Source of the DNA: Thermodesulfobacteriota bacterium | GTDB lineage: Bacteria > Desulfobacterota > Desulfobacteria > Desulfobacterales > Desulfosalsimonadaceae | Assembly: GCA_051745395.1 (NCBI GenBank) | Contig: JBNJEA010000001.1 | Coordinates: forward strand, 2,201-66,200 | Direction of reading: 5' to 3' | Length of the DNA stretch: 64,000 nucleotides | Program-made: the position numbers and the translations under genes | Part shown: in pieces, positions 3,584 through 64,000 of the stretch | Layout: the number at the start of each line of letters is the position of its first letter | How positions within the stretch are numbered: position 1 is the stretch's first letter | The notes under the pieces: generated by a model | What the model was told of the DNA's origin: nothing | Databases searched by the model: none | The model's input: the letters and a program-made list of their open reading frames with translations, nothing else

Positions 3584-3867
3584 GCGGTTTGTCTCCTTTT
3601 GTGACAGCGTATTCTATATTTTTGATAATATTGAAAATTAAAATACCAAAACTTTTGAAAAATATATTAAAATAGGAAATTTTTGCACTTGATGTCAAGC
3701 AGGAAAAATCGGTTTGACGCGGTATTTCAACGCCCCGGCACGAAATCGGCTGCGGACCGATTGACACGGACCGGTTTTCTTTATTATATACGGTTTCAAT
3801 CCAATCCGGCAATCCCGGCGCCGGCCGTTTTTTAACCCAAATTAACGCGCAGCAAGGACGACTATCG

Positions 3868-5094: not shown

Positions 5095-5111
5095 GGTTTT
5101 TTACACGATCT

Positions 5112-15891: not shown

Positions 15892-16929
15892 ATGGTTTTT
15901 TCCTGCAAACCCTTTGTCGTGCCCATCTTCATCCCCCACTCGGGATGCCCCCACCGCTGCGTGTTCTGCAACCAGGAGGCACTTGCCGGTACCGAAACCG
16001 CCATGCCGGCGCCTTCGGCCATCTCCGCCGAAATCGCCCGGTTTCTCGCCTTCCGGAAAAAAAACCGCCACCCGGTGGAAATCTCGTTTTACGGCGGCAA
16101 TTTTCTGGGGCTCGATGCCGCTCTGGTAAAGACCTTGCTGGAAACGGCCGCCGCCTTTGTCGAGGCCGGCAAAGCCGACGGCATCCGGTTTTCCACCCGT
16201 CCCGATACCATCGACGACCAGCGCCTTGCCGCCATTTCCGCCTTTCCGGTGACCACGGTGGAACTCGGGGTCCAGTCCATGGATGACGCTGTGCTTTCCC
16301 GCACCCGCCGCGGCCACAGTGCCGATGATACCCGGCAGGCGGTTTCGCTGCTCAAAGCCCGCGGTTGGCAGACGGGATTGCAGATGATGGTGGGCCTGCC
16401 GGGTGAAAGCCGGCAGACAACCCGGACCACCGGCCGGGCCGTGGCCGCCCTTGCCCCGGATTTCGTCCGGATTTATCCCACCCTGGTGCTGCGGGGCAGC
16501 CGGCTTGCCATGTGGTATGAAGCCGGCACGTACAAGCCGCTTGAAATGGCCGACTGCATCGACCGCCTCAAGGCCCTTTACCGGATGTTTACCGGTGCCG
16601 GCATCCCGGTGATCCGGATGGGCGTGCAGCCCAACGAGGGAATCGATTCCGGAGACGATGTACTGGCCGGCCCCTATCATCCGGCCCTGGGCCACAGGGT
16701 CAAATCCGAACACTTTTTTGATGTTGCCGCCGATGCCATTGAAGCCCTGCCGCAGCAACCCGCACGCCTGGCCCTTTGCGTGGCCCCGCGGCAGGTCTCG
16801 GCCATGCGGGGGCTGAAAAACGAAAACATCGAACGCCTGCACCGCCGGTTTGCCGCGATTGACGACTTTGATGTAAAAGCCGATGCCGCAGTGGGGGAAA
16901 TGAATGTGAAGGTATCGGTTGGATCGTGA
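15892..16929 (+). CDS. Radical SAM protein, ELP3-like core without an acetyltransferase domain
   Basis: 345 aa. FIPHSGCPHRCVFCNQ (CxxxCxxC) close to the N-terminus. Lies 11 nt downstream of rnc. Confidence 0.7.
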   Translation: MVFSCKPFVVPIFIPHSGCPHRCVFCNQEALAGTETAMPAPSAISAEIARFLAFRKKNRHPVEISFYGGNFLGLDAALVKTLLETAAAFVEAGKADGIRFSTRPDTIDDQRLAAISAFPVTTVELGVQSMDDAVLSRTRRGHSADDTRQAVSLLKARGWQTGLQMMVGLPGESRQTTRTTGRAVAALAPDFVRIYPTLVLRGSRLAMWYEAGTYKPLEMADCIDRLKALYRMFTGAGIPVIRMGVQPNEGIDSGDDVLAGPYHPALGHRVKSEHFFDVAADAIEALPQQPARLALCVAPRQVSAMRGLKNENIERLHRRFAAIDDFDVKADAAVGEMNVKVSVGS

Positions 16930-26963: not shown

Positions 26964-27647
26964 ATGGCAGTCGAAGCATCCGACAAGCCGGACACCCCGT
27001 TGACCCGGGTTTTTGATCAGCTCGCTGACGGCATTGACACCGCCGACGGCCGGATTTTTGCAGATTCCATCCAGCGGGGCCGCTTCCAGGAAGAACGCAA
27101 CATGACCCTGTATTTTCAAATCGGCGACAGAAAATGCCGCCTGATGCAGGCCACCATTTTTTTCGGCCGTTCTGCCATATTTAAACCATGGGCGGAATTA
27201 TACAATATCGAAAACCGGTTGCTTATCGACAATAAGACCTTTATTTTCCCCGATTCCGACCTGGAATATGGGGTTATTGAACTGCTGCTGCCGGTCATCG
27301 CACCGGGCGGTAAAATATTTGTGGAATACGAAAACGATCCGGAAACCCGAAAGGCCCTGGAAATCGGTGTTCCCGCCGCAGCTTCGCGCATGGGCTATAT
27401 TTTGTTTCAAAACGGGGCCACATGGTTTAAAGACTGGTATTTTTCCGAAGGCTACATGGAAGGCGGCAGAAAACTCCAGGGGGAAAAGGCCATCAAACCG
27501 CAAGTAAAAAACCGCCACATGGAAAACATCGTGCACCAGTTACAAAATTTCCTGCAAACCCGCCCCGAATCACAACGCGAAAGCGAGGCGATAAACCGGG
27601 CCATCAAGCGGGCAAAAACCGTACTGGACTCACTCGGTGGCACCTAA
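26964..27647 (+). CDS. Hypothetical protein, 227 aa
   Basis: Strong Shine-Dalgarno (GGAGGAG 5 nt before the ATG) and ordinary globular composition. I do not recognise a family. Confidence 0.6.
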   Translation: MAVEASDKPDTPLTRVFDQLADGIDTADGRIFADSIQRGRFQEERNMTLYFQIGDRKCRLMQATIFFGRSAIFKPWAELYNIENRLLIDNKTFIFPDSDLEYGVIELLLPVIAPGGKIFVEYENDPETRKALEIGVPAAASRMGYILFQNGATWFKDWYFSEGYMEGGRKLQGEKAIKPQVKNRHMENIVHQLQNFLQTRPESQRESEAINRAIKRAKTVLDSLGGT

Positions 27648-28331: not shown

Positions 28332-31912
<3,581 letters not shown>

Positions 31913-37399: not shown

Positions 37400-37495
37400 T
37401 TAGGATAACAATGGTTTTAACCGGCAGACCGGCCGCGATCGGATAAGGAAAACCCTTTATTCGGCCACAGGGCCGGCAAAGTGAGGTGGTGGTCA

Positions 37496-38506
37496 ATGAA
37501 TGCAGCATACTTGTATTCCCTCATTGCAGTCGTCGTTTTGGGATTAATTGCTTTTGCGGGGGTTGAAGCGGCGGGATTGGACGGGTTGTTTGGAATATTG
37601 ATTCCCTATCTCGCCCTGGTCATTTTTATTGTGGGATTTGCCAACCGGATTATCGACTGGGCCAAGTCCCCGGTTCCGTTTCGTATTCCCACCACAAGCG
37701 GCCAGCAGAAATCGCTGGACTGGATCAAGCCCAACCGGATCGACAGCCCGTATACCAGGGGCGCTGTCGTGGTTCGGATGGCGCTGGAAATTTTGTTGTT
37801 CCGCTCGTTGTTTAAAAATACCCGCTCGGGATTTGCCAAAGCCGGCGATTCGGACAGGCTGACCTACAAGTGGGTGGTCTGGTTGTGGCTGTTTGCGATT
37901 TTGTTCCATTACTCCTTTTTCGTGGTGGTCATCCGGCATATCCGGTTTTTTGCCGAGCCCACGCCGTTTTTTGTCAGCGCACTGGAAAAAGTCGACGGCA
38001 TCCTCCAGATCGGGCTTCCCGGGCTGTTTATCTCGGGTGTCGCCCTGCTTGCCGGCGCCACCCTGCTGCTGTTCCGGCGGGTTTTTCTGCCCAAGGTGAA
38101 ATATATTTCCCGGGCAGCCGATTACTTTCCGCTGTTTCTCATTATCGGCATTGCGATTACCGGTATTATGATGCGGTATTTCACCAAGGTCGACGTGGTC
38201 AAGGTCAAGGAACTGACCATGGGCCTGGCGAGTTTCCAGCCCGCAATTCCCGAAGGCGGGCTCGGCGGCCTGTTCTACGTGCACCTGTTTTTTGTCGCCA
38301 TTCTCGTGGCCTACATTCCGTTTAGCAAGCTCATGCACATGGGCGGCGTCTTTATGAGCCCGACCCGGAATCTGCCCAACAACAGCCGGGCGGAGCGGCA
38401 TATTAATCCGTGGAATTATCCGGTCGCAACCCATACCTACGAAGAGTATGAAGACGATTTCAGGGAAAAAATGAAAGAGGCTGGCCTTCCAGTTGAAAAG
38501 GAGTAA
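37496..38506 (+). CDS. dsrM: DsrM, NarI/HdrE-like haem b membrane subunit of the DsrMKJOP complex
   Basis: Polytopic. I use ATG 37496 (GAGGTGG upstream) rather than the track's GTG 37481. First of five tightly packed genes in dsrMKJOP order. Confidence 0.85.
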   Translation: MNAAYLYSLIAVVVLGLIAFAGVEAAGLDGLFGILIPYLALVIFIVGFANRIIDWAKSPVPFRIPTTSGQQKSLDWIKPNRIDSPYTRGAVVVRMALEILLFRSLFKNTRSGFAKAGDSDRLTYKWVVWLWLFAILFHYSFFVVVIRHIRFFAEPTPFFVSALEKVDGILQIGLPGLFISGVALLAGATLLLFRRVFLPKVKYISRAADYFPLFLIIGIAITGIMMRYFTKVDVVKVKELTMGLASFQPAIPEGGLGGLFYVHLFFVAILVAYIPFSKLMHMGGVFMSPTRNLPNNSRAERHINPWNYPVATHTYEEYEDDFREKMKEAGLPVEKE

Positions 38507-38512
38507 GTAGTC

Positions 38513-40132
38513 ATGGCAGAGACCCCCAAACCAGAAGAGCTGATTCAAGATATTGATCATACCCCGCCGGAAAAGGACTGGGAGGATATACCGCCGGATA
38601 TGTCACCCGGCAAGTTCTGTTATCCTACAAAAAACAAGAACCTGCAATATCTGGGCCTGCCCACCCCCCAGGCCGAGGAATGGTCGCCGGCCGATGAGCA
38701 GTGGCCGCTGCCGGACAACTGGCAGGAAATCATATATGAAGGTTTCCGGGATCGCCTGGACAAATACCGATCCCTGAAGATATTTATGGACACCTGCGTG
38801 CGCTGCGGGGCCTGTGCGGACAAGTGCCATTTTTTTATCGGCACGGGCGATCCCAAGAACATGCCGGTGGTACGGGCCGAACTGCTTCGGTCGATCTACC
38901 GCAAGGACTTTACCACGGCCGGCAAGATCCTCGGCCGGATCGCCGGCGGCCGGCCCCTGACCCAGCAGGTGATCAAGGAATGGTTTTCCTATTTCTACCA
39001 GTGCACGGAATGCCGGCGCTGTTCGGTCTACTGCCCCTACGGTATTGATACGGCCGAAGTGACCATGATGGGCCGGGAATTGCTGACGCTTCTGGGCATC
39101 AACATCAACTGGATCCTCGAGCCGGCGGCCAACTGTTTCCGCACCGGCAACCACCTGGGCATCCAGCCGCACGCCTTCAAGGAAATGATCGAGTTTTTCT
39201 GCGACGACATCGAGGAAATCACCGGCCTGAAATTAAACCCAACCTTCAACCGCAAGGGCGCAGAAATCCTGTTTATCACCCCGTCCGGCGATGTCTTCGC
39301 CGATCCGGGTACGTATACGATGATGGGCTACCTGATGCTTTTCGAGCATATCGGCCTGGACTACACCCTGTCCACTTATGCTTCCGAGGGCGGCAACTTC
39401 GGGCTGTTTACCTCCTCGGAGATGATGAAGCGCCTAAACGCAAAGATGTATGCCGAGGCCAAGCGGCTCGGGGTCAAGTGGATTCTCGGCGGCGAATGCG
39501 GTCACATGTGGCGGGTGATTCACCAGTACATGGATACCATGAACGGACCGGCCGATTTCGGCGAAACCCCGGTCAACCCGATTACCGGCACCCGGTTCGA
39601 CAACGCGGCGGCGACCAAGATGGTCCATGTTGCCGAGTTTACAGCCGATTTGATCCGCAACAACAAGTTAAAGCTCGATCCCAGCCGGAATGACAAGTTC
39701 AAGGTCACCTTCCACGATTCCTGCAACCCGTCCCGGGCCATGGGCTTGCTCGAAGAGCCCCGGTATGTGCTCAAGCATGTATGCAACAATTTCTATGAAA
39801 TGCCGGAAAACACCATACGCGAGCAGACCTTCTGCTGCGGCAGCGGCTCCGGGTTAAATACGGAAGAGATCATGGAATTGCGGATGCGCGGTGGTCTCCC
39901 CCGCGCCAACGCGGTCCGGCACGTGCACGACAAATACGGGGTCAACATGCTGTCTTGTATTTGCGCCATCGACCGCGCGGCATTTCCGCCGTTGATGGAC
40001 TACTGGGTTCCCGAAGTCGGTGTCACCGGCATACACGAGCTGCTCGGCAACGCGCTGGTAATGGACGGCGAAATCGAACGAACCACCGACCTGCGCTTCG
40101 AACCCCTGACAGAAGAAGAAACGGAGGAGTAA
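38513..40132 (+). CDS. dsrK: DsrK, HdrD-like iron-sulfur subunit
   Basis: 539 aa. Ferredoxin-type clusters CVRCGACADKC and CTECRRCSVYCP. CCG-type Cys motifs FHDSCNPSR and TFCCGSGSG. Confidence 0.9.
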   Translation: MAETPKPEELIQDIDHTPPEKDWEDIPPDMSPGKFCYPTKNKNLQYLGLPTPQAEEWSPADEQWPLPDNWQEIIYEGFRDRLDKYRSLKIFMDTCVRCGACADKCHFFIGTGDPKNMPVVRAELLRSIYRKDFTTAGKILGRIAGGRPLTQQVIKEWFSYFYQCTECRRCSVYCPYGIDTAEVTMMGRELLTLLGININWILEPAANCFRTGNHLGIQPHAFKEMIEFFCDDIEEITGLKLNPTFNRKGAEILFITPSGDVFADPGTYTMMGYLMLFEHIGLDYTLSTYASEGGNFGLFTSSEMMKRLNAKMYAEAKRLGVKWILGGECGHMWRVIHQYMDTMNGPADFGETPVNPITGTRFDNAAATKMVHVAEFTADLIRNNKLKLDPSRNDKFKVTFHDSCNPSRAMGLLEEPRYVLKHVCNNFYEMPENTIREQTFCCGSGSGLNTEEIMELRMRGGLPRANAVRHVHDKYGVNMLSCICAIDRAAFPPLMDYWVPEVGVTGIHELLGNALVMDGEIERTTDLRFEPLTEEETEE

Positions 40133-40136
40133 GTCG

Positions 40137-40523
40137 ATGTATGATAAGGGCAAAGTGATCGCCGGTTTGGTCATATTTTTTGCGATCCTGACGTTTCCGT
40201 TCTGGTACAATCATGGTTCCGCCGACTCCGCCCCGGAGCCGGAGTTGACCAAAAAGGCGAAAAAGGCCGAAACCTGCATCGCCGAAACGGATTACATGCG
40301 GACCGAGCACATGCAGATACTGGATCAATGGCGGGATACGACGACGCGCGACGGCAAACGCGTCTATGTCAATGAAGACGGCGAAGAATACACGGCCAGT
40401 TTGTCGAATACCTGCATGGATTGTCATTCCAACAAGGAAGATTTTTGTGACGAATGCCACGATTATGCTTCTGTCTCGCCCTACTGCTGGGATTGTCATA
40501 CCTACCCGGAGGAGAAGGAATAA
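40137..40523 (+). CDS. dsrJ: DsrJ, trihaem cytochrome c
   Basis: 128 aa. N-terminal membrane anchor, three CxxCH sites (CMDCH, CDECH, CWDCH), and a conserved upstream Cys (ETCIAE). Confidence 0.9.
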   Translation: MYDKGKVIAGLVIFFAILTFPFWYNHGSADSAPEPELTKKAKKAETCIAETDYMRTEHMQILDQWRDTTTRDGKRVYVNEDGEEYTASLSNTCMDCHSNKEDFCDECHDYASVSPYCWDCHTYPEEKE

Positions 40524-41329
40524 TGGATAACAGCAGACGAAAATTTCTGAAAACCGCCGGATATTCGGTGATCGGAATTGGTGCGGGCTCGATGCTGATC
40601 ACCCTGGCGCCGAAAATCACCCGTGCCAGCCAGGAAAAATCCAAGCCGCGATACACCGACCAGCCCGAGGCAAAGAAGGCCACACGGTGGGGTATGGTGA
40701 TCGATACGCGCAAAATCGATTCCGCTATCAACCGCAAAATCCAGGATGCCTGCCATAAGGTCCACAACGTGCCCGACCATGTGGCCGAGTTCGACAAAAA
40801 AGACCATGAAATCAAGTGGATCTGGTCGACCGGATATCTGCACGCATTCCCGGGCCGTGAAAACCAGTTTTTGACCGACAAGCTGGCGGACAAAAAAATC
40901 CCCGTGCTGTGCAACCATTGCGACAATCCGCCGTGTGTCCAGGCCTGTCCGACCAAAGCGACGTTTAAGCGCGAATCCGACGGCATCGTGTTGATGGATT
41001 TTCATCGCTGCATCGGCTGCCGCTTCTGCGTGGCGGCCTGCCCCTATGGGGCCCGGAGTTTTAATTTCCGCGATCCCCGGCCGGCCATTAAAGAGGAAAA
41101 TCCGGATTTTCCAACCCGCATGAAAGGCGTCGTGGAGAAATGCAACTTCTGCGCCGAACGCCTGGCCGACGGCAAAATGCCGGCTTGCGTGGAAGCTTCT
41201 GAAGGAGCACTGGTTTTCGGCGATTTAAACGACCCGGATTCCGAGATCCGGAAACTGCTGGCTGATGAATATGCCATCCGGCGGAAAGTGAGCCTCGGTA
41301 CGTACCCGTCCGTATTTTATATCGTATGA
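40523..41329 (+). CDS. dsrO: DsrO, periplasmic ferredoxin-like FeS subunit (Tat-exported)
   Basis: ATG 40523 overlaps the dsrJ stop (TAATG). Twin-arginine signal MDNSRRKFLKTAG. Cys clusters CNHCDNPPCVQACP, CIGCRFCVAACP and CNFCAERL. Confidence 0.9.
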   Translation: MDNSRRKFLKTAGYSVIGIGAGSMLITLAPKITRASQEKSKPRYTDQPEAKKATRWGMVIDTRKIDSAINRKIQDACHKVHNVPDHVAEFDKKDHEIKWIWSTGYLHAFPGRENQFLTDKLADKKIPVLCNHCDNPPCVQACPTKATFKRESDGIVLMDFHRCIGCRFCVAACPYGARSFNFRDPRPAIKEENPDFPTRMKGVVEKCNFCAERLADGKMPACVEASEGALVFGDLNDPDSEIRKLLADEYAIRRKVSLGTYPSVFYIV

Positions 41330-41347
41330 TCATCGTATGAGGGAGCT

Positions 41348-42505
41348 ATGCTAGAAAAAGCGCTAAAAGGAAACAAGTCATACTGGATGTGGCTGGGGGC
41401 GCTGGTGGTAATCACCGCGATCGGGTTTGTGTTTTATTTGCGCCAGCTGGAATTCGGCCTGGGAATTACGGGCATGAACCGCGACGTTACCTGGGGCTTC
41501 TACATTGCCCAGTTTACCTTCCTGGTCGGTGTGGCGGCCTCGGCCGTGATGCTGGTGCTGCCCTATTACCTCCACGATTATAAGACCTTCGGCAAAATCA
41601 CCGTGCTGGGCGAATTTCTGGCGGTGGCCTCGGTGCTGATGTGCATGCTGTTTATCGTGGTCGACCTCGGCCAGCCGATGCGGCTGATGAACGTCATTTT
41701 TTACCCCTCGCCCAAGTCCATGCTGTTTTGGGACATGATCGTCTTAAACGGCTATTTGTTTTTAAATATCATTATCGGATGGAACGTGCTGGATGCGGAA
41801 CGAAACGGCGTGCCGGTTGAGAAATGGGTCAAGCCGCTGATTTATATCTCCATCCCCTGGGCCATCAGTATCCATACGGTAACGGCCTTTCTCTATTGCG
41901 GTCTGCCCGGCCGGGGGTTCTGGCTGACAGCCGTGTTGGCCCCCCGCTTTCTGGCCTCCGCTTTTGCCGCCGGTCCGGCCTTTTTGATCCTGCTGAGTTT
42001 CATCCTTCGCAAGTTTACCAATTTTGACCCGGGTGACAAGCCGATTCAGACACTGGCCAAAATCGTGGCCTACGGCGCCATTGCCAACCTGTTTTTCTTC
42101 GGCTGCGAGGTCTTTGTGGCGGCCTACAGCCAGATTCCGGAGCACACGGCGCATTTGAAATACCTGTTTCTCGGTTTGCACGGCCACGGCGTGCTGGTGC
42201 CCTGGATGTGGAGCTCGGTTGCCTTGATGCTGGCGGCCATCGTTTTGCTGCTCATTCCTTCGGCCCGGCAAAACAATGCCGTTCTCGGCGTGGCCTGCGC
42301 GATGATCTTTATCGGTGTCTGGATCGATAAGGGCCTGGGCATGATTTCCGGCGGTTTTATCCCCAATCCGTTGCATGAGATCAACGAATACGTGCCATCT
42401 GTACCTGAAGTGATTATTACCATCGGAGTGTATGCTGTGGGATTACTTGTTCTGACGTTGCTCTATAAAGTGGTTGTGGGGGTTAAGGAAGAAGTCGGGG
42501 GATAA
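41348..42505 (+). CDS. dsrP: DsrP, NrfD/PsrC-like integral membrane subunit
   Basis: 385 aa, about 10 TM helices. GAGGGAG Shine-Dalgarno. Last gene of the cluster, followed by a terminator. Confidence 0.9.
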   Translation: MLEKALKGNKSYWMWLGALVVITAIGFVFYLRQLEFGLGITGMNRDVTWGFYIAQFTFLVGVAASAVMLVLPYYLHDYKTFGKITVLGEFLAVASVLMCMLFIVVDLGQPMRLMNVIFYPSPKSMLFWDMIVLNGYLFLNIIIGWNVLDAERNGVPVEKWVKPLIYISIPWAISIHTVTAFLYCGLPGRGFWLTAVLAPRFLASAFAAGPAFLILLSFILRKFTNFDPGDKPIQTLAKIVAYGAIANLFFFGCEVFVAAYSQIPEHTAHLKYLFLGLHGHGVLVPWMWSSVALMLAAIVLLLIPSARQNNAVLGVACAMIFIGVWIDKGLGMISGGFIPNPLHEINEYVPSVPEVIITIGVYAVGLLVLTLLYKVVVGVKEEVGG

Positions 42506-50379: not shown

Positions 50380-52641
50380 ATGGCTGACAATGCGTCACGG
50401 AAAAAGGCCCTGGATTTTCTGTTCGTGTTCAATGCGGCGATTACCAATATGCGCCTCTATCCACCAACCAGTGCCATCATTCAACACTCGGTGGAACGGA
50501 TGAACAAAGTCCTTGCCGATACCTTTGCCATCGTCTCGCCCCTGGAATACGCGGAATCGGAAAAAAACCTCCTGGTTCTGGGCGATCCGCTGCCGGAAAA
50601 AGAACAGCAAAAGCCACAGGTCAGCACCTTTCTGGCTTTGATGCTCGATATGGGCATCCGCAGTATCTCCATTGAAAAAGGCATTACCGCGGAGCAAATC
50701 ACCGCCTTTCTGTCGATCGTGGCCAGATCGAAAGACGAAATCGCCGCGGGCGGCGGTCTGCAGACGCTCATGGACCAATCCGATATCCGCCATATCACCA
50801 TCGATGAAAAGATCTATGTGGGCATGGATTCGGAGCATAGCATCATGTCGGGCCTCGGCATCAGTGACGCCGATTTTGCCCGGTATTTGACCGGCGAGCA
50901 GGAAATATCCAAGGAGGTCCTCGAGCAGGTGCGCCAGATTGCCGGTAATCCCGAATGGTTTTCCGAAGCCTTTTCCTCCGGAGTGAAGCAGCTCATGGAA
51001 GGCGATGTTCAAAAGAAAAAGCAGGCGGACCTGTCCAAGGCGTTTGCCGGGATGATCAGTGCCTTGGACGGCATCACCGACGCGGACAAAGACGATATCG
51101 CCCGGTATATCATCCAGTCCATGTCGGAAATGGACGAGGACGTGCTGGCCACTGTGCTGACCCAGAACCTGGATGCGGTCTTTGGGGAAGATTTCTTTTC
51201 GGAGTTTGTGGAACAAATCGATACCCAACGGTTTCAAAAGCTTTTTTCCCGCCTCGGCGAAATGCTGGAAAAGCGGGAAAGCAAGTCGCGTGATCCATCG
51301 GAATCCGAAGCCATTGAGCGGGTCTATCACCTGCTCGAGCAAACGGAAAAAGGGCAAGCCCTCCAGGCAGGAGCCGGCGGGACCGGGGAGCAAAGCCAAT
51401 CGGCCGATACCGGCGAGGCGGCAACGGGGAAAGGATCGCAAGACCGGCTCCATCATTTGAAAAACCAGTTAAACCGGATCATGAAAGGCGACGCCGGGGC
51501 CTTCTGCGAAGACGTGGTCGGAAGTAACCTGGCCGAGACCTATGAAAAATTAATCGCCAGCGGCAAAACCGATATCGCGGAGCGATTAAACGGTCGGATG
51601 GGCGATGCGCTGTTAAACGAGGACCCCGCGGTTCGAAAGGCCGTCGCCGGTATTATGGCCGAAATTGACGAAAAGCTGGCCGCCGCCGATCGTCTCGATG
51701 AACGGATGGAACTGTCGAAAAAGCTGGCGGATTGGGTGAAATTTGAAACGGCCGTGACAACGGAGTTTGAAAGGGTCACCGGGCAGATGCAGCAACTGTC
51801 GCAGGAATTGATTGAAAACGACCGGGAACAGGACGCCGAGCAGATTCTGGAGGCCTACCATTTAGTGGCCCGGGGCAATCTGGAAAAAGACGAAGCCATC
51901 CAGGCCCTTGCCGGGAATATGTTGCAAAACGTCGCCACAGACGCTATCCTCGACACCCTGTTGAAGGAAAAAAAATCGGGGCAGAACCGGCCCAAGGACG
52001 ATATTTACAGCCTGGTCATTCTCGGCTCCACAACGGTGGAACGGTTGCTGGACCGATTGTATGACAGCCGCAACATGTCGGAGCGCAACCGGATCATCCA
52101 GGCCATCGGCCAGATCGGTAAACCGGCGCTCGGCCCGGTAATCGAGCGGCTGCATCAGGGCGGTCCCTGGTATTACCTTCGCAACCTGGTGTTGCTCGCA
52201 GGGCGGCTCGGGGATGAAAGGCAGCTTTCGACACTGGCCACAATAGTGGGGCATGCCGATTACCGGGTGCAGCTCGAGGCCATTAAAAGCATTCAAAATA
52301 TCGGCGGCTCCGAGGCGGGCCGGATTTTATATGAACACATTGATACCATTGACGATCAGCTCAAGGGGTATATGATCTCGGTACTCGGGGCGTTGCGTTA
52401 CCGGCCGGCCGCCCCGTATCTCATTGACCTGATCACATCCAGGGCCCCGGGAAAATCAAAAGCCGATCACGCGGAAATCCGGGAAAAAACCTGTGAAGCC
52501 TTAGGGCGGATGCAGGCGCAGGAGGCGGTGACCGCCCTGGAAAAGGTGGTCCGCAGCAAAGGCGTCCTGGGCAGGAAAACCCATCCGGAAAACGTCCGAT
52601 CAGCGGCCGCCAGAGCCCTGTCCAACATCAAACGGGGATAG
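50380..52641 (+). CDS. HEAT/PBS-lyase-repeat protein, 753 aa
   Basis: The C-terminal third has repeated HEAT_PBS-like units (RNRIIQAIGQIGKPALGPVIERL; VQLEAIKSIQNIGGSEAG; IREKTCEALGRMQAQEAVTALEKV; VRSAAARALSNI). I do not recognise the N-terminal ~450 aa. Confidence 0.6.
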   Translation: MADNASRKKALDFLFVFNAAITNMRLYPPTSAIIQHSVERMNKVLADTFAIVSPLEYAESEKNLLVLGDPLPEKEQQKPQVSTFLALMLDMGIRSISIEKGITAEQITAFLSIVARSKDEIAAGGGLQTLMDQSDIRHITIDEKIYVGMDSEHSIMSGLGISDADFARYLTGEQEISKEVLEQVRQIAGNPEWFSEAFSSGVKQLMEGDVQKKKQADLSKAFAGMISALDGITDADKDDIARYIIQSMSEMDEDVLATVLTQNLDAVFGEDFFSEFVEQIDTQRFQKLFSRLGEMLEKRESKSRDPSESEAIERVYHLLEQTEKGQALQAGAGGTGEQSQSADTGEAATGKGSQDRLHHLKNQLNRIMKGDAGAFCEDVVGSNLAETYEKLIASGKTDIAERLNGRMGDALLNEDPAVRKAVAGIMAEIDEKLAAADRLDERMELSKKLADWVKFETAVTTEFERVTGQMQQLSQELIENDREQDAEQILEAYHLVARGNLEKDEAIQALAGNMLQNVATDAILDTLLKEKKSGQNRPKDDIYSLVILGSTTVERLLDRLYDSRNMSERNRIIQAIGQIGKPALGPVIERLHQGGPWYYLRNLVLLAGRLGDERQLSTLATIVGHADYRVQLEAIKSIQNIGGSEAGRILYEHIDTIDDQLKGYMISVLGALRYRPAAPYLIDLITSRAPGKSKADHAEIREKTCEALGRMQAQEAVTALEKVVRSKGVLGRKTHPENVRSAAARALSNIKRG

Positions 52642-52675: not shown

Positions 52676-53683
52676 ATGGCCGATCTTGCCAGCCAGGAAG
52701 CGCTACTGGATCAATACATCAGCGAAAATAAAACCGAAGAAGCTCTCAAGCTCCTGTTCGACCTGATCGTGGCGCATGCAAAGGAAAAAAATTTTGAAAA
52801 GGCCGAGGCTTTGCATGAAAGACTCTATGATGTAGACCCCATGGCCTTGACCGAAATCGTTCGGGCCGGTGAAATTATTGAAGAGGCCAAAAGCGAAAGC
52901 CTGGACAAGGAGCACCTGGAAATCTGGGCCGATCTGTATGAAAACCTGTCGGCCGCAGAAGGCAATGCACTGTATTATTCCATGAAACCCCGGGAATTTG
53001 AGGCCGGCGAGCCGATTGTGGAGCAGGGCGCCATCGACAACCGCCTCTACTTCATCAACAAGGGGGAGGTCAAGGCTGTTTTCCGCAAAGAAGACAAGGA
53101 AAAGCTTTTGCTGACATTGGGCGTGGGCGATATTTTCGGCCAGGACCAGTTTTTTTCCGCCACCGTGTCCACGGTTTCCCTGATACCGCTTTCCCGGGTC
53201 AAGGTTACCTGCCTGGAAAGCGATGTGTTGAAAAAATGGAAAAACGATACCCCGGCACTGGAATCCAAACTGTTTGACTATTGCCGCTACCGCGACAAGA
53301 TCAAGCAGACCCTCGGGGCCAAGGGCATGGAACGCCGGGAGTATACGCGCACCCCGCTTTCCGGCAAGATGGTGTTTCACCTGCTCGACGGGGCGAACAA
53401 AAGCATGGGAAAGGCGTATAAGGGCGAGATTTCCGATATTTCCGCCGGCGGACTTTCCTTTCTGATCAAAACCTCCAAGCCGGAAACCATCCGCATGCTG
53501 CTCGGCCGAAGGCTGCAGGTGAAATTCGATCTGGTCTTAAAAGACGGGCAGCGCCGCACCGTGGACCAGCCCGGCCACGTCATTGCCGTGCAGTCCCAGG
53601 CATTTGATGACTTCTCCATTCATTTAAAACTCGACACCCCGCTGGATCAGTCGCTGATCGAAGCCATTACGCAGGGCGATTGA
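52676..53683 (+). CDS. Cyclic-nucleotide-binding-like domain + PilZ domain protein
   Basis: AAGGAGG Shine-Dalgarno. CAP/cNMP-like beta-roll (GEPIVEQGAIDNRLYFINKGEVKAV...GDIFGQDQFF). PilZ motifs RREYTR (RxxxR) and DISAGG (DxSxxG). Confidence 0.7.
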   Translation: MADLASQEALLDQYISENKTEEALKLLFDLIVAHAKEKNFEKAEALHERLYDVDPMALTEIVRAGEIIEEAKSESLDKEHLEIWADLYENLSAAEGNALYYSMKPREFEAGEPIVEQGAIDNRLYFINKGEVKAVFRKEDKEKLLLTLGVGDIFGQDQFFSATVSTVSLIPLSRVKVTCLESDVLKKWKNDTPALESKLFDYCRYRDKIKQTLGAKGMERREYTRTPLSGKMVFHLLDGANKSMGKAYKGEISDISAGGLSFLIKTSKPETIRMLLGRRLQVKFDLVLKDGQRRTVDQPGHVIAVQSQAFDDFSIHLKLDTPLDQSLIEAITQGD

Positions 53684-55207: not shown

Positions 55208-55293
55208 GGAGGGATGGCCGAGTGGCTTAAGGCGGCGGTCTTGAAAACCGTTGAGCGAAAGCTCCGTGGGTTCGAATCCTACTCCCTCCGCCA
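55208..55293 (+). tRNA. tRNA-Ser (anticodon UGA), CCA encoded
   Basis: Acceptor stem GGAGGGA/TCCCTCC, anticodon loop CTTGAAA, long variable arm, T-loop GGTTCGAATCC, 3' GCCA. Confidence 0.95.
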
Positions 55294-55329
55294 TGGAAAC
55301 TGAAAAATTCATTATGTAATTCATCATAC

Positions 55330-55422
55330 GGAGAGATGGCCGAGTCGGCTGAAGGCGCTCGCCTGCTAAGCGAGTAACGGGGTAACACTCGTTCGAGGGT
55401 TCGAATCCCTCTCTCTCCGCCA
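55330..55422 (+). tRNA. tRNA-Ser (anticodon GCU), CCA encoded
   Basis: Acceptor stem GGAGAGA/TCTCTCC, anticodon stem CTCGC/GCGAG with loop CTGCTAA, long variable arm, T-loop GGTTCGAATCC, 3' GCCA. Confidence 0.95.
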
Positions 55423-56134: not shown

Positions 56135-57052
56135 TTATTGGCGTCGGCAGCCCTGCCGCAGGCCCCGGTCCGCCATGGTCTGCTGAATCCGGGCCAGGGT
56201 GCCGCGCTTGTCAAGCGCCCACTCGGGGGCGATCAGCTCGTCCCGGTGCGGGTCGCCGGTCAGGCGCTGGACGACCACGGTTTCGGGCAGGCGTGTCAAA
56301 AATTCGCAGACGAGATCCACGTATTGCCCCTGGGATAGGCAGGTGTAGTTGCCGCGGCGGTACCAGTCGGCCAGCACCGTATCGCAGACCACGTAGAGCA
56401 GGTGCAGCTTGATGCCGTCGATGCCGAGATTTGCCAGAAAGTCTGCGGTCTGCATCATCTGTTGCCGGGTTTCGCCGGGAAGGCCCAGGATGACGTGCAC
56501 GCAGAAGGGGATACCGCGGTTTTTCGTGGCCGCCACGGCCTGCTGGAATGCGGCTGCGTCGTGGCCGCGGTTGATGCGGGCAAGGGTTTCGTCGTGGGCC
56601 GACTGCAGGCCGTATTCCACCCAGACGAGAAAATCACTGGTATAGGATGTCAGCAGGTCGATGATGTCTTCGTCCACGCAGTCCGGCCGGGTGCCCACGC
56701 ACAGGCCGACCACGCCGTCGACGGCCAGGGCTTCGTCGTAGAGGGCCTTCAGTTGTGCTGCGGGCGCATAGGTGTTGGTATAGGATTGAAAGTAGGCCAG
56801 GAACTTTTTGGCCTTGTAGCGTTTGGCCAGGGCCGCTTTGCCGGCTTCGAGCTGCTGCGTGATGGAGATATCCCAGCGGTGGGCGCCGGTGCCCGAGCCG
56901 TGGGCGTTGCAGTAAATGCAGCCTGTGCGGGAAAGCGTGCCGTCGCGGTTCGGGCAGGACAGGCCCGCGTCGATGGTGATTTTCTGGACCCGGCAGCCGT
57001 ATTGCTGCCTGAGGTACGTGTTGAAATCGAAATATCTTTTCAGGTCATCCAT
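56135..57052 (-). CDS. TIGR01212 (YhcC-type) radical SAM protein
   Basis: Track ORF trimmed to ATG 57052 (306 aa): MDDLKRYFDFNTYLRQQYGCRVQKITIDAGLSCPNRDGTLSRTGCIYCN, the extended Cys motif typical of this family. Confidence 0.8.
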   Translation of the reverse strand: MDDLKRYFDFNTYLRQQYGCRVQKITIDAGLSCPNRDGTLSRTGCIYCNAHGSGTGAHRWDISITQQLEAGKAALAKRYKAKKFLAYFQSYTNTYAPAAQLKALYDEALAVDGVVGLCVGTRPDCVDEDIIDLLTSYTSDFLVWVEYGLQSAHDETLARINRGHDAAAFQQAVAATKNRGIPFCVHVILGLPGETRQQMMQTADFLANLGIDGIKLHLLYVVCDTVLADWYRRGNYTCLSQGQYVDLVCEFLTRLPETVVVQRLTGDPHRDELIAPEWALDKRGTLARIQQTMADRGLRQGCRRQ

Positions 57053-57404
57053 TGCTATACTTGACCGGTTAGAAAAGGGGATATAAGATGCTTTCCTTTT
57101 ATACCAGCCGAATACCACATCCGGTTTGACACCGCAATCGGCTGGCCTGGCGGTAGAGAAGAAAATATCCAAAAAGGACATTGCTTCTTCCGTAATGCTC
57201 GCGAAAGCGGGCATCCCGTTTTCCAGGCGGCAAGAAAAACCTGGATGCCTGCCTCCCGAAAGGGTCCGGGACAGGTTCGCAGGCATGACAGACGCAGCAA
57301 TATTGCTGTTTTTGTTCGGTCACGGCAGCTCATGAAGCCTTTTATCAGAAGACAAAAGCAGAAACTGGAATATTACGGATAACCAGGTGACCCTAATTTA
57401 AGAC

Positions 57405-60374: not shown

Positions 60375-60404
60375 TACAACTTTCTGTTTTTCCAAAAGTT
60401 TATA

Positions 60405-60436
60405 AAGCCGATGGCGCCCGCCATCGGCTTTTTTTA
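60405..60436 (+). terminator. Rho-independent terminator
   Basis: AAGCCGATGGCG-cc-CGCCATCGGCTT followed by TTTTT. Confidence 0.65.
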
Positions 60437-60723
60437 TCTGGATTTGCTCTCACCTTTCCCCCCTTCCGGTTGCCCGTTTTTCTCCGTATTTCGGGTAAAT
60501 CAACGAATCCCGTAAATTTATTGACAAAAGGGGATCGTTCATATAGATTCACCATGAAGGCAATATGCCCAAATATACTGTTTAATTTGTTATATTGCTA
60601 TAAAAACAGTTGGTTAAAAAACGTAAATCGCTTGCCCGTATTGTAATAGAACTTACATGATATGACTTCTGCCGGTTGTCTTTCCCAAAAACTGTCTTTG
60701 TAATGACACGTCAAAGATTGGAT

Positions 60724-61263
60724 ATGCCCAAACTTCTTCCCGTCCTCACCGAAAATGACATTCGCACGAAAGTTTCAATTGTGGCACAGCAGATTTCGTC
60801 GGATTATCAGGACAAAGAGCTTGTTCTGGTGGGCGTGCTCAAGGGGGCGTTTGTCTTTCTGGCCGATTTGATCCGGCAGTTGACGATACCGGTCACGATT
60901 GATTTCATATGGGTGTCGAGTTACGGCTGCGCCGATACCACGTCGGGGACGGTAACACGGGTCTCCGACATTACTACCGATATTTCCGGAAAACAGGTTC
61001 TGATTGTCGAAGACATCCTGGACACGGGGCTGACCGTAAAAGAGCTGATCGGCTGCCTGGCCGCGCACAACCCGGCAAGCATCGGGGTCTGCGCATTTGT
61101 TGACAAAAGCGTTCGGCGGCAGAATGATTGCCGGGCCGACTACGCCTGCCACCGGGTAGAAGAGGGGTTCCTTGTAGGGTATGGCCTGGATTTTGCAGAG
61201 AAATACCGGCATTTGCCTGCGCTATATGAATTAAATAATACAATCAGCGAGGAAGTAAAATGA
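60724..61263 (+). CDS. hpt: Hypoxanthine phosphoribosyltransferase
   Basis: Track ORF trimmed to ATG 60724 (start uncertain). PRPP-binding motif VLIVEDILDTGLT. Confidence 0.85.
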   Translation: MPKLLPVLTENDIRTKVSIVAQQISSDYQDKELVLVGVLKGAFVFLADLIRQLTIPVTIDFIWVSSYGCADTTSGTVTRVSDITTDISGKQVLIVEDILDTGLTVKELIGCLAAHNPASIGVCAFVDKSVRRQNDCRADYACHRVEEGFLVGYGLDFAEKYRHLPALYELNNTISEEVK

Positions 61264-64000
61264 TCATCACCTGCGAAGCCTGCGGAACAACCTACAAATT
61301 GAACGCCAGTCTTCTGCAATCAACCGGTTCGACGGTGCGGTGTTCCAACTGTGAACATGTTTTCGTGGCTTATCCGCAGGGTGCCGGAAAGGAAAAACCC
61401 GCTGAATTTCATACAGATACCGATTCTTCCCAAAAGACTTACGACCCGCCCATCACCGAAGATATGTATAAAGAGGCCGAGGAAACCGAAAGGGAACTCG
61501 ATGCCATTTTTGACGATGAAGACGAAGAGGATGATGATGGTGCGCCGGGTGCGGAACTACCCGAAAACATAACGGAAACATCCCCGGAAGACGCTGCCGG
61601 GGGCCGTGAGGCAACAAGCGGGACCGAAACGGAAACAGCCGATTTCGACGCCGGCGATTTGAGTTTTTTGGATGAAACCGAACCCGCCGGCAAAAAACCC
61701 GCGGACCAGGAAATATCCGGGATTGGAGCGCCATTTTCAGACCAGGGCAGCCGGACGGCGGGATCGGAAACGGCCGGATCTGAATCTGAATCTGAAGATG
61801 CCTGGGATGCCGGGGTGGAAATGCATCTCGATGACCTGGAGTCCGAGCAAGACATCGTGGGTCTGGATTCACTGACCGCAGAAGCCGAGCCGGTGATGGA
61901 GCTCGACGATCTGGGCCCTGCCGCTGCAGAAGATGACACGGTGGAAGAGGAAACCGTTAATCTGGGGGATTTGGCCACAACCGCCATGGAAGAGGGCGAT
62001 TCCGTCGATCTTTCCGAACTGAGCCGGACGGCCATGGAGGGCGAAACTGTTGGTCTCGACGATATCGGCCGCACCGCCGCAGAAGGCGATTCGGTCGATC
62101 TCTCCGAGTTGAGCCGGACGGCCATGGAGGGCGAAACCGTTGGTTTTGATGATGTAAGCCGCACCGAAGCAGAGGGAGACTCGGTTGCCCCAGGCGACCT
62201 GGAAAGCCCTGCTGCCGGGCAGGAAAGCGTTGCGCTCGATGAGTTGGGCCGCACCGCCGTGGAAGATGATACCGTAGGAGAAGACACCGTTAGCTTTGAT
62301 GAGCTGGCCACGACATCGGTCGAAGAAGCCGACGAATCCGCGGGCCTCGATGAAGCCGATCGTACCGCAGTGGAAGGCGAGTCAACGGGTGTTTTTGACC
62401 TGGATGATTTCGAAGCCGAGCCGACCGCCGAAGCGGCAGAGACGGCAGAAGACGAAGCGGATCTGGATTTTTCGGAGGCCTTCGACGATCTGTCAGACGA
62501 TCTGTCAACGCAAGCCGAGGCAACCTCGGAGGAAGAAATCGAGCCGGTCGAAGATCTGGAAGAGGGGGTTCAACCGCTGGATACGCAAGCGGAGGAACCG
62601 GAAGCGCAAACCGAAGAAAAAGGAGGATTTGTATCGGAATTGGGGGATTTTGATCAACAACCGGAGAGCGAAAAACCCCCGAAAAAAGACAAGGACACCG
62701 GCGAAGAAAAGGACAAAGCGACATCGCCGGAGGGTGAAGACGAAGATACGGATGAATTTGATCTTGATTTCGAGCTTGACCTGGCGTCCGAAGACGGGGG
62801 TGAGGCTGCCGAAGCCGCATCAGAAGATGCAGCGCACGACCTGGAGGAGACAGATCTTGATTTCGACGACATGGAGACAGATCTCAACGAACAGGCGGAA
62901 ACACCGGCAACCGGCCCCGGTCAAAGTGAACCAAAATCGACCACCGAAGAATTTGACCTGAATTTGGAGGAAACAGCGGAAGAATCGGAACTGGGTCTGG
63001 ATTTCGACCTGGATGAGTTTGACCTGGACCTGGAAGAATCCGAGGAAACCGCAAAAACCGGTGACGCAGACGAATTCGACCTGGATTTGGAAGAAGAAGG
63101 CGCAGCGGAAGCTGAAGAAGGCGAGGCCGACGCCGGTGAATTTTCACTGGATCTGGACCTCGACGCCGACGAAGAAGGCGTTGCGGCAGAAAGCGCCGGT
63201 GCGGAGGAGGCGGAATTCGAGCTCGACCTCGACGTCGAAGACGAAGGCGAAGCGGCTCCGGCTGCCAGCGGCGCCACCGCTGAAGCCGAAGACGAGTTCG
63301 AGCTGGACCTGGATCTCGGCGCCGATGAAGCGGCCGAAACCGCCGGCGAAGAAACCGGGGCGACCGATTCGTTCGACCTCGACCTCGGTTTTGACGCCGA
63401 CGCCGCAGCGGAAGCTGAAGAAGGCGAGGCCGACGCCGACGAATTTTCACTGGATCTGGACCTCGACGCCGACGAAGAAGGCGTTGCGGCAGAAAGTGCC
63501 GGTGCGGAGGAAGCGGAATTCGACCTCGACCTCGACGTCGAAGACGAAGGCGAAGCGGCTCCGGCTGCCAGCGGCGCCACCGCTGAAGCCGAAGACGAGT
63601 TCGAGCTGGACCTGGATCTCGGCGCCGATGAAGCGGCCGAAACCGCCGGCGAAGAAACCGGGGCGACCGATTCGTTCGACCTCGACCTCGGTTTTGACGC
63701 CGACGCCGCAGCGGAAGCTGAAGAAGGCGAGGCCGACGCCGACGAATTTTCACTGGATCTGGACCTCGACGCCGACGAAGAAGGCGTTGCGGCAGAAAGC
63801 GCCGGCGGGCAAGCAGACGAATTCGACCTCGACCTGGAAGAAGAAGGCGGGGCACCGGCCGGGGCAACGGCGGAAGTCGAGGATTTTGAATTGGACTTGG
63901 ACCTCGGCGAGGAAGAAGCCGGGGCGGCCGAAGAAGAGACATCGACTGCTGCCGCTGAGTCCGCCGGGCAGGACGAATTCGATCTGACCGACGTGGAAGA
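61260..64000 (+). CDS. MJ0042-type zinc-ribbon protein with a giant acidic repeat region (5' partial; continues past the right edge)
   Basis: Not in the ORF track (no stop inside the window). ATG 61260 overlaps the hpt stop (ATGA), with GAGGAAG upstream. My hand translation found no stop through 64000 (913 codons). N-terminus MIITCEACGTTYKLNASLLQSTGSTVRCSNCEHVF, then Asp/Glu/Ala/Gly/Thr-rich sequence with many EFDLDL-type motifs. Confidence 0.75.
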   Translation, partial: MIITCEACGTTYKLNASLLQSTGSTVRCSNCEHVFVAYPQGAGKEKPAEFHTDTDSSQKTYDPPITEDMYKEAEETERELDAIFDDEDEEDDDGAPGAELPENITETSPEDAAGGREATSGTETETADFDAGDLSFLDETEPAGKKPADQEISGIGAPFSDQGSRTAGSETAGSESESEDAWDAGVEMHLDDLESEQDIVGLDSLTAEAEPVMELDDLGPAAAEDDTVEEETVNLGDLATTAMEEGDSVDLSELSRTAMEGETVGLDDIGRTAAEGDSVDLSELSRTAMEGETVGFDDVSRTEAEGDSVAPGDLESPAAGQESVALDELGRTAVEDDTVGEDTVSFDELATTSVEEADESAGLDEADRTAVEGESTGVFDLDDFEAEPTAEAAETAEDEADLDFSEAFDDLSDDLSTQAEATSEEEIEPVEDLEEGVQPLDTQAEEPEAQTEEKGGFVSELGDFDQQPESEKPPKKDKDTGEEKDKATSPEGEDEDTDEFDLDFELDLASEDGGEAAEAASEDAAHDLEETDLDFDDMETDLNEQAETPATGPGQSEPKSTTEEFDLNLEETAEESELGLDFDLDEFDLDLEESEETAKTGDADEFDLDLEEEGAAEAEEGEADAGEFSLDLDLDADEEGVAAESAGAEEAEFELDLDVEDEGEAAPAASGATAEAEDEFELDLDLGADEAAETAGEETGATDSFDLDLGFDADAAAEAEEGEADADEFSLDLDLDADEEGVAAESAGAEEAEFDLDLDVEDEGEAAPAASGATAEAEDEFELDLDLGADEAAETAGEETGATDSFDLDLGFDADAAAEAEEGEADADEFSLDLDLDADEEGVAAESAGGQADEFDLDLEEEGGAPAGATAEVEDFELDLDLGEEEAGAAEEETSTAAAESAGQDEFDLTDVE
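61995..62174 (+). repeat. Intragenic 90-bp direct duplication (two 15-residue sub-units each)
   Basis: GDSVDLSELSRTAMEGETVGLDDIGRTAAE followed by GDSVDLSELSRTAMEGETVGFDDVSRTEAE. Period of 90 nt measured from 61995 to 62085. Confidence 0.8.
63102..63805 (+). repeat. Intragenic 303-bp tandem repeat, about 2.3 near-identical copies
   Basis: Copies start at 63102, 63405 and 63708 (GCAGCGGAAGCTGAAGAAGGCGAGGCCGACGCC...), with only a handful of substitutions between copies 1 and 2. Copy 3 diverges after about 63805. Confidence 0.85.

Follow-up and report, generated by a model that had tools for sequence, protein, structure and literature searches.

Two bacterial membrane proteins, ZitP of Caulobacter crescentus (CC_2215; PDB 2nb9; Mignolet et al. 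2016; Berge et al. 2016, eLife) and GltJ/AgmX of Myxococcus xanthus (PDB 7zok; Attia et al. 2024, Sci Adv), are the closest described systems for a gene that we analysed at the 3′ end of a 64,000-nucleotide stretch of DNA from a Thermodesulfobacteriota bacterium of the Desulfosalsimonadaceae (assembly GCA_051745395.1, contig JBNJEA010000001.1, positions 2,201 to 66,200, forward strand; hereafter the window). The gene starts at position 61260 with a zinc ribbon (ZnR), continues as a very long acidic linker up to the window edge, and directly follows hpt, the gene for hypoxanthine phosphoribosyltransferase. The gene family itself is already known, being represented by zinc-ribbon/DUF3426 entries in databases; what is new is a variant of the ZitP type whose linker forms a giant acidic motif array, and this variant is spread widely across Desulfobacterota and paired with hpt.

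ZitP consists of a ZnR (PF13719, residues 1-37), a linker, a transmembrane (TM) helix and a periplasmic DUF3426 domain (PMC5182063, PMC5182065). Its ZnR binds the polar matrix protein PopZ, an interaction that requires zinc binding via four cysteines and is disrupted by the W35I substitution; in pilus biogenesis, its DUF3426 serves to recruit CpaM (PMC5182063, PMC5182065). PopZ is reported to be absent outside Alphaproteobacteria, a statement made for Myxococcus (PMC11135422). The ZnR of GltJ docks onto a short motif within the disordered linker of the same protein; MglA-GTP competes for this motif, and the freed ZnR recruits MglB (PMC11135422). A further point of comparison is provided by the polar organisers FimV and HubP, which carry LysM in the periplasm, have a TM helix and an acidic cytoplasmic part, and end in a FimV tetratricopeptide repeat (TPR) domain (PMC12918733).

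Coding frame, zinc ribbon and family architecture

Translation of 61260-64000 on the forward strand revealed 913 codons with zero stops up to the window edge, as the first-pass annotation of this DNA had described, against 6-50 stops in each of the other five frames; under the local base composition, the probability of such a stop-free run is ~1.6e-15. The start codon (61260-61262) overlaps the TGA of hpt (61261-61263) in an ATGA, with GAGGAAG upstream, and both features proposed in the first pass were read in the sequence. The frame had been called hidden, and it is indeed unlisted, with no meaning beyond the fact that an open reading frame (ORF) running off the window edge is not listed. All six overlapping shadow ORFs named at the time are present, but the list was incomplete, since 61453-61872 (-) is there as well; none of the six matched a Pfam family at the curated threshold.

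Codon-position GC and codon usage, which had been put forward as a check of the frame, lend it weak support. GC content at third codon positions (GC3) is 0.58 in the 913-codon frame versus 0.75-0.78 in adjacent genes, and the synonymous-codon score is 0.12 versus 0.35-0.44, a value equalled by one reverse frame. Because these codon statistics alone are unconvincing, the frame rests on protein homology. Its closest relative, P0001 (1037 aa), was retrieved at E values of 1.4e-71 and 4.5e-71, with an alignment spanning the whole window protein, and a survey of one genome per GTDB species recovered relatives in at least 236 genomes, from which 80 loci were kept. The frame is a genuine coding gene, cut at the window edge.

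Profile searches revealed that residues 1-38 match PF13717 (47.3 bits, E 2e-12; cutoff 30.3), PF13719 (45.4 bits, E 6.5e-12; cutoff 29.3) and TIGR02098 MJ0042_CXXC (38.2 bits, E 8.5e-10; cutoff 20.9), the last of these bearing out the MJ0042-type zinc ribbon recognised in the first pass. The four cysteines C5, C8, C28 and C31 are invariant across the family alignments. Residue 35, at the position of ZitP W35, is Phe, invariant in a 16-sequence alignment and conserved at ≥90% in a 31-sequence alignment. The best PDB sequence matches of the ZnR are ZitP 2nb9_A (E 7e-4, residues 1-42) and GltJ/AgmX 7zok (E 2e-3). In the AlphaFold2 (AF2) model of the window protein, the ZnR reaches a predicted local distance difference test (pLDDT) score of ~91 and shows the strand pattern of the ZitP ZnR, and the ZnR of the P0001 model superposes on 2nb9 with TMt 0.75 and probability 1.00.

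Relatives were collected by an indexed protein search (31 proteins) and an exhaustive HMMER search (345 proteins), and nearly all of them pair the zinc ribbon with PF11906 (DUF3426), including 29 of the 31 from the first search. PF11906 scores above its cutoff in P0001 (35.5 bits), P0160, P0161 and P0162; P0001, P0160 and P0161 are the three closest relatives, all with DUF3426. Window residue 913 (…DEFDLTDVE) aligns with P0001 residue 746 of 1037 (…EEFDLTEVE), so that ~291 residues would lie past the window edge, and the full-length protein should measure ~1200 aa, among the longest of the family. From this point, P0001, P0160 and P0161 continue through DFLDLE, DLETMLDEE, KEVSLET and a basic patch into a hydrophobic helix and DUF3426. 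No near-identical locus was found in an exact 63-mer search of metagenome contigs or in the one-per-species genome survey, and a metagenome protein search and the exhaustive HMMER search, in which P0001 ranked first, returned nothing closer than P0001.

The AF2 model of P0001 comprises the ZnR (residues 1-40, pLDDT >90), a helix at 67-84 and, after a disordered stretch spanning residues 86-875, a TM helix (876-903) and a beta-sandwich at 919-1036 (pLDDT ~95). KAGARGKLGRR precedes the TM helix, acidic or neutral residues follow it, and no signal peptide is present. Because basic residues precede the TM helix and a signal peptide is lacking, the ZnR and the acidic body are predicted to be cytoplasmic and DUF3426 periplasmic. 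The TM or DUF3426-like end about which the first-pass annotation had asked is found in every close relative, and for the window gene we infer both elements from these relatives; the ZnR-linker-TM-DUF3426 architecture is thereby very probable for the window protein.

A PDB fold search with the P0001 DUF3426 beta-sandwich returned the Wzt carbohydrate-binding domain (E 4e-3), DUF1425 and IrmA, extending to ~2e-2, with no match at E <= 1e-3. Because these matches are weak and correspond to generic beta-sandwiches, we draw no specific function for DUF3426 from them.

The likeness to ZitP covers the domain order, the predicted topology, a cytoplasmic ZnR with CxxC-x19-CxxC, a disordered linker and a single TM helix. 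The architecture, which had been described at first as not assignable to a characterised family, is thus the published ZitP layout, with a ZnR matching both 2nb9 and 7zok. The differences are equally clear: the ZitP linker has ~70 residues, compared with ~850-960 here (37% Asp+Glu, ~25 linear motifs), Trp35, needed for PopZ binding, is Phe in the family, and the family gene follows hpt and has no pilus context. An orthologue of ZitP acting as PopZ client and CpaM recruiter was rejected on the Phe at position 35.

GltJ resembles the window protein in its N-terminal ZnR, which is homologous (E 2e-3), and in the disordered linker that comes next; like the form predicted here, it is a bitopic membrane protein. 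It differs in its GYF domain, its other periplasmic part and its membership of the Agl-Glt gliding machine; in the window protein, profile search and AF2 gave neither a GYF family match nor a folded domain after the ZnR. It also differs in having one linker motif (L86-L103) where ~25 are found here. GltJ shows, as a direct precedent, that a ZnR can interact with linear motifs of the linker next to it.

Acidic linker and its motif arrays

The body that follows the ZnR contains 37% Asp+Glu and has a net charge of -298. Its 101-residue repeat unit holds 40-41 Asp/Glu, depending on register, and no Lys, Arg or His, in agreement with the 41 acidic residues counted in the first pass. AF2 assigned pLDDT <50 to 838 of the 913 residues, and an acidic helix at residues 67-85 is the sole ordered element predicted in the window part besides the ZnR (Table 1).

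Motif analysis revealed two arrays, separated by a conserved block. Array A contains 9 motifs, against 0.1 expected, at a spacing of ~15 residues; it includes a 90-bp x 2.2 tandem repeat (61991-62185; Tandem Repeats Finder, TRF) and has a counterpart in P0001, P0003 and P0004. The mid-block, whose KPPKKDKD is the only basic patch in the window part of the body, is common to P0001, P0003, P0004, L006, P0160 and P0161. Both array A and the mid-block were missed in the first pass. Array B holds 15 matches to [DES]F[DES]L[DN]L and 16 to F[DES]L[DN][LF], all within residues 500-880, with a spacing of 19-27 residues in the main run from residue 565 on; composition-preserving shuffles gave an expectation of 0.02 for the 16 observed. 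The array of LDL-type motifs originally reported is therefore real, the first-pass figures of ~16-17 copies and a period of ~25 residues standing beside the 15-16 copies and 19-27 residues measured here. All linker motifs alternate hydrophobic and acidic residues (F-D-L-D-L), an amphipathic beta-strand pattern. Beyond the arrays, the pre-TM motif (D/E)(F/L)(D/E)L(T/S)x(I/V/L)(D/E)(D/E)x(L/I/F), at which the window breaks off, is present in 40 of 84 family members.

Array B contains a tandem duplication whose two full 303-bp copies differ at 5 of 303 nucleotides (2 synonymous and 2 non-synonymous codons), a similarity that indicates recent in-frame expansion. Short-read assembly could miscount such near-identical copies, which makes the copy number of the unit uncertain. 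Among the relatives, P0003 (an NCBI protein of 844 aa from a metagenome-assembled genome, MAG) ends in an Arg/Gly-rich tail (GSHGGRWGIGRGGFRSRP) typical of a shadow frame and is without TM helix and DUF3426, and four further MAG relatives (L007, L017, L062 and L067) end prematurely within the acidic repeats. These early ends are probably frameshift or assembly errors in repeats, and on this account too the number of 303-bp units in the window is to be read with caution.

The same observations bear on whether the 913-codon frame could be no gene at all, arising instead by chance, from base composition or as an assembly artefact of repeat-rich DNA. Its atypical GC3 and synonymous codon usage, the near-identical 303-bp repeats that short-read assemblers may miscount, and the truncated or frameshifted MAG relatives (P0003, L007, L017, L062, L067) would be compatible with such an origin. 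They are outweighed by the absence of stops in 913 codons (P ~1e-15), by homology along the entire length with conserved blocks in the same order, by the spread of relatives over at least 236 species genomes and by the confidently modelled N-terminal domain. We give the non-gene explanation next to no credence and reject it for the gene as such; the uncertainty in the copy number of the 303-bp unit stays.

Turning to the family, the kept loci are nearly all from Desulfobacterales, including Desulfosarcina variabilis, D. widdelii, Desulfonema, Desulfosalsimonadaceae and Desulfococcaceae. Complete proteins in the survey measure ~410-1037 aa, with a constant ZnR and, in almost every case, a single TM helix ~165-190 residues from the C-terminus; their linkers contain 27-45% Asp+Glu and 1-11% Lys+Arg. 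Motif number across orthologues, which the first-pass annotation had proposed to survey, is 15 in the window protein by strict count, 11 in P0001 and 0-7 in the other relatives. In a more distant branch, from Desulfuromonadales, the linkers span 200-460 residues and show the motif flavour (D/E)F(S/D)F(D/E). Aromatic-x-hydrophobic-acidic motifs exceed shuffled expectation (z > 3) in 20 of 29 linkers of the Desulfobacterales type and in 81 of 118 of the Desulfuromonadales type. This enrichment in both branches supports the motif-array principle as a family trait, of which the window protein is an extreme case. Relatives in MAGs and Desulfosarcina genomes already carry the NCBI annotations 'zinc-ribbon domain-containing protein' or DUF3426, which place the family in the databases and are silent on the acidic motif arrays and the hpt operon.

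An explanation by charge alone would see the body as a polyanion, held at the membrane, to bind or buffer polyamines or divalent cations, or, in a variant, as an entropic brush that keeps nucleoid and ribosomes off a membrane patch, the motifs being by-products of repeat expansion. It draws on the 37% Asp+Glu and net charge of -298, the strong variation of linker length and motif number among relatives, the recent 303-bp duplication and the lack of linker structure in AF2. The hydrophobic residues, however, are not randomly spread but stand in the fixed alternating register F-x-L-x-L (16 copies versus 0.02 expected). Moreover, the aromatic-acidic motif persists across two orders despite diverged surrounding sequence, and a longer motif, ELDL(S/T)D(I/V)ED(F/L)L, is position-conserved in 40 of 84 members. 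Taken jointly, the polyanion and brush variants appear unlikely.

The acidic body had also suggested a comparison with FimV and HubP (Vibrio, Shewanella, Pseudomonas). The likeness lies in a membrane-tethered, largely unstructured and highly acidic cytoplasmic region (PMC12918733) and in its imperfect repeats, which differ in number and length among close relatives. The orientation, however, is reversed: the window protein would have its ZnR N-in and its DUF3426 C-out, in contrast to the N-out LysM and C-in TPR of HubP/FimV. No LysM or FimV/TPR family was found at E <= 0.1 in the window protein, and the Pfam domains of full-length relatives are limited to PF13717, PF13719 and PF11906, with no FimV TPR. 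Several homologues are labelled 'pilus assembly protein FimV' by JGI, a label that fits no defining FimV domain and is based at most on shared acidic composition.

Descent as a divergent FimV/HubP-family polar landmark would account for this label and for a disordered, acidic cytoplasmic region that bears repeats and, like that of HubP, is anchored to the membrane. It is countered by the missing LysM and FimV/TPR domains and the reversed orientation, and the acidic region, although present (37% Asp+Glu; 303-bp and 90-bp repeats), does not define the family by itself. Family membership, which we consider extremely improbable, is refuted; of the original comparison, the analogy between the acidic regions may hold as a functional one, and the domain content and topology do not. 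An acidic protein of magnetosome or biomineralisation type was likewise rejected, given the cytoplasmic placement of the region by topology, the origin-proximal housekeeping neighbourhood and the order-wide presence of the gene.

Pairing with hpt and the surrounding window

The reading frame of hpt extends open from 60676, and ATG codons stand in frame at 60703 and 60724. A strong terminator-like hairpin separates the dnaJ/cbpA-like gene from the hpt unit, and this hairpin together with the promoter-like site before hpt is consistent with a bicistronic operon; sigma-70-like consensus matches numbered 2, compared with 1.0 expected. The second of them (TTGACA-17-AATGAT, 10/12; 61100-61128, +) lies in the 3′ part of hpt, ~130 nt 5′ of the ZnR gene start, and is a possible internal promoter, its consensus match occurring at about the chance rate. 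Coordinates of the main features of the locus are collected in Table 1.

Table 1. Features of the hpt/zinc-ribbon locus in the window and paired loci in Desulfuromonadales
Feature	Coordinates	Strand	Evidence or remark
Terminator-like hairpin, 12 pairs then T-run	60404..60431	+	3′ of dnaJ/cbpA-like gene
Sigma-70-like promoter candidate TTGACA-17-TAGATT, 10/12	60521..60549	+	Consensus match only; upstream of hpt
hpt (hypoxanthine phosphoribosyltransferase)	60724..61263	+	TIGR01203 E 2.8e-54, 183 bits (cutoff 150); PF00156
Shine-Dalgarno-like GAGGAAG	61249..61255	+	4 nt 5′ of ATG 61260; read directly in sequence
5′ part of ZnR/acidic-linker/TM/DUF3426 gene (TM and DUF3426 predicted)	61260..64000	+	913 codons, no stop; ~291 codons expected past window edge
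Zinc ribbon, residues 1-40, C5-x2-C8 ... C28-x2-C31	61260..61379	+	PF13717/PF13719/TIGR02098; PDB matches; pLDDT ~91
Conserved acidic helix, residues 67-85 (EDMYKEAEETERELDAIFD)	61458..61514	+	AF2, block pLDDT 56-82; same helix in P0001; BLASTP conservation
Array A: 9 V-x-(L/F)-x-(D/E/S)-(L/I/V), e.g. VDLSEL, VGLDDI; residues 200-349	61857..62306	+	
Conserved mid-block, residues 435-485: EEGVQP...EEKGGFVSELGDF then KPPKKDKD	62562..62714	+	
Array B: 15-16 (D/E/S)F(D/E/S)L(D/N)(L/F), residues 497-885	62748..63914	+	
Tandem duplication in array B, 303-bp (101-aa, 4-motif) unit x 2.4	63101..63835	+	TRF score 1386, 96% matches
Start of conserved pre-TM block (SAGQDEFDLTDVE) = P0001 EEFDLTEVEDFLD	63969..63998	+	Window ends within block
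hpt-ZnR/DUF3426 pairs	L083 3130-5537; L089, L090, L091 ~3420-5700		Desulfuromonadales MAGs

Across the family, hpt lies immediately upstream of the ZnR gene in 77 of 80 loci with sufficient flanking sequence, mostly at a distance of 13-21 nt, and the ATGA overlap occurs in 4 of 80. In Desulfobacterales, the gene order radical-SAM (-), mnmG, dnaJ-like, hpt, ZnR gene is conserved, which by itself could be plain synteny. Four Desulfuromonadales contigs (L083, L089, L090, L091) retain the hpt-ZnR/DUF3426 pair with every other neighbour different: on the upstream side there is a divergent Rieske/cytochrome b cluster, on the downstream side there are ferredoxin and ackA genes, and the hpt-ZnR gap is 21-44 nt. 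The linkers encoded at these four loci carry (D/E)F(S/D)F(D/E) in place of EFDLDL. Because the pair persists amid differing neighbours, the two-gene unit is conserved in its own right. The shared operon with hpt proposed in the first-pass annotation is thus supported, including 4 of 4 Desulfuromonadales loci, while translational coupling, plausible in this genome, is no feature of the family; what is conserved is the two-gene hpt unit and not the ATGA overlap.

In many zinc-binding anti-sigma factors, an N-terminus that binds zinc in the cytoplasm is joined by one TM helix to a periplasmic beta-sandwich, and the general layout predicted here is the same. A transmembrane anti-sigma or sensor-type protein could use DUF3426 to sense an envelope or carbohydrate cue and its ZnR to sequester or release a regulator, with hpt reflecting purine- or nucleotide-related control; the carbohydrate-binding beta-sandwiches among the best DUF3426 fold matches (such as the Wzt domain, E 4e-3) and the hpt pairing kept across two orders would both suit this. 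The ZnR, however, belongs to PF13717/PF13719 and has no zf-HC2 match, and no sigma-factor gene adjoins it in any locus examined, the upstream neighbour being hpt in 77 of 80. The fold matches, with none at E <= 1e-3, are weak and generic, and an 850-residue acidic linker would have no role. We regard a sensor of this type as quite improbable.

The remainder of the window provides the genomic setting. Rfam and tRNA scans gave no match in the region of the gene; two adjacent tRNA-Ser genes (TGA, GCT) at 55208-55422 (+) are the only Rfam/ARAGORN matches in the window. The cumulative GC skew reaches a minimum at ~28 kb, in a 680-nt gap between a DUF1122 gene (26964-27647) and dnaN (28332-29450)/gyrB (29450-31912), which looks like a replication origin region; no dnaA stands directly upstream of dnaN. 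The ZnR gene lies ~33 kb from this minimum and is co-oriented with replication.

Two paralogous radical-SAM proteins with Radical_SAM_C are encoded at 15892-16929 (+) and 56135-57286 (-), the latter conserved beside mnmG, in divergent orientation, at every Desulfobacterales locus examined. Cyclic-nucleotide-binding and PilZ domains are joined in one protein at 52676-53683 (+), adjoined by the gene for a 753-aa HEAT-repeat protein (50380-52641), and in a relative from the Desulfosalsimonadaceae (L003, 31-1071) this gene cluster likewise has a cyclic-nucleotide-binding protein encoded upstream of it. The products of a run of membrane redox genes at 37481-42505 (+), namely a NarI-like gamma subunit, an NrfD-like protein and two 4Fe-4S proteins, recall the DsrMK/Hme-type complexes known from sulfate-reducing bacteria, as would suit a window of Desulfobacterales origin.

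Proposed function and its significance

Our overall reading, to which we assign a probability of about 0.6, is that the gene encodes a bitopic inner-membrane scaffold of ZitP layout with a multivalent disordered docking array. The window would hold the first 913 of ~1200 residues of this protein. Its cytoplasmic ZnR would serve as a protein-protein interaction module on a long disordered polyanionic tether, and the ZnR and the ~25 linear motifs could present multivalent docking sites for cytoplasmic clients or, as in GltJ, for the ZnR itself. DUF3426 may engage a periplasmic or envelope partner, as the ZitP DUF3426 recruits CpaM, and the acidic cytoplasmic part may play the role of the acidic regions in HubP/FimV-type polar organisers. 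The gene would be co-transcribed with hpt as a conserved two-gene unit, and its array would have grown through recent in-frame tandem duplication. The scaffold or organiser function as such, drawn by analogy with these described proteins, is a tentative proposal that we hold at somewhat less than even odds.

Several points weigh against the docking-scaffold interpretation. No pilus, flagellar or polarity genes adjoin the locus, where the neighbours are housekeeping genes, and the C-terminal third of the protein lies past the window edge. At the sequence level, the likeness to ZitP extends to the ZnR (E 7e-4) and, by Pfam family, to DUF3426, and no further. Since residue 35 is Phe rather than Trp and PopZ has been reported as lacking outside Alphaproteobacteria, any binding partner must differ from that of ZitP. 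The wide variation in linker length (~200-880 aa) and in motif number (0-16) could reflect weak constraint on the arrays. Finally, a literature search on DUF3426, MJ0042 and Desulfobacterales zinc ribbons returned the two ZitP papers and otherwise unrelated mentions, with no Desulfobacterota member studied.

A more speculative extension, which we rate as rather a long shot, pictures a self-contained membrane organiser for PopZ-less bacteria, in which the ZnR would bind VxLDDL/EFDLDL motifs of neighbouring molecules. The motifs would add a beta-strand to the ZnR sheet, multiplying the one-motif switch of GltJ ~25-fold. Multivalent binding, regulated by zinc or clients, could then assemble the molecules at the inner membrane into a condensate or a two-dimensional network, with DUF3426 as the link to the envelope and with valency set by a motif number that in-frame tandem duplication would tune. 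Co-expression with hpt might tie the protein level to purine salvage and growth state.

Collectively, the family keeps the end domains of ZitP and swaps the 70-residue linker for a polyanionic motif array of 200-950 residues, joining the ZitP layout and a HubP-like acidic-repeat principle in one polypeptide. Its members provide a natural valency series, from 0 to ~25 motifs, for studying multivalent disordered arrays at bacterial membranes. In MAG assemblies rich in repeats, genes of this kind can easily go unnoticed or acquire frameshifts, and hpt stands as a strongly conserved operon partner. ZitP and GltJ have established the small zinc ribbon as a polarity or localisation module, so far in Alphaproteobacteria and Myxococcus only; the family described here may bear on envelope and pole organisation in Desulfobacterota, among them filamentous Desulfonema and aggregate-forming Desulfosarcina.

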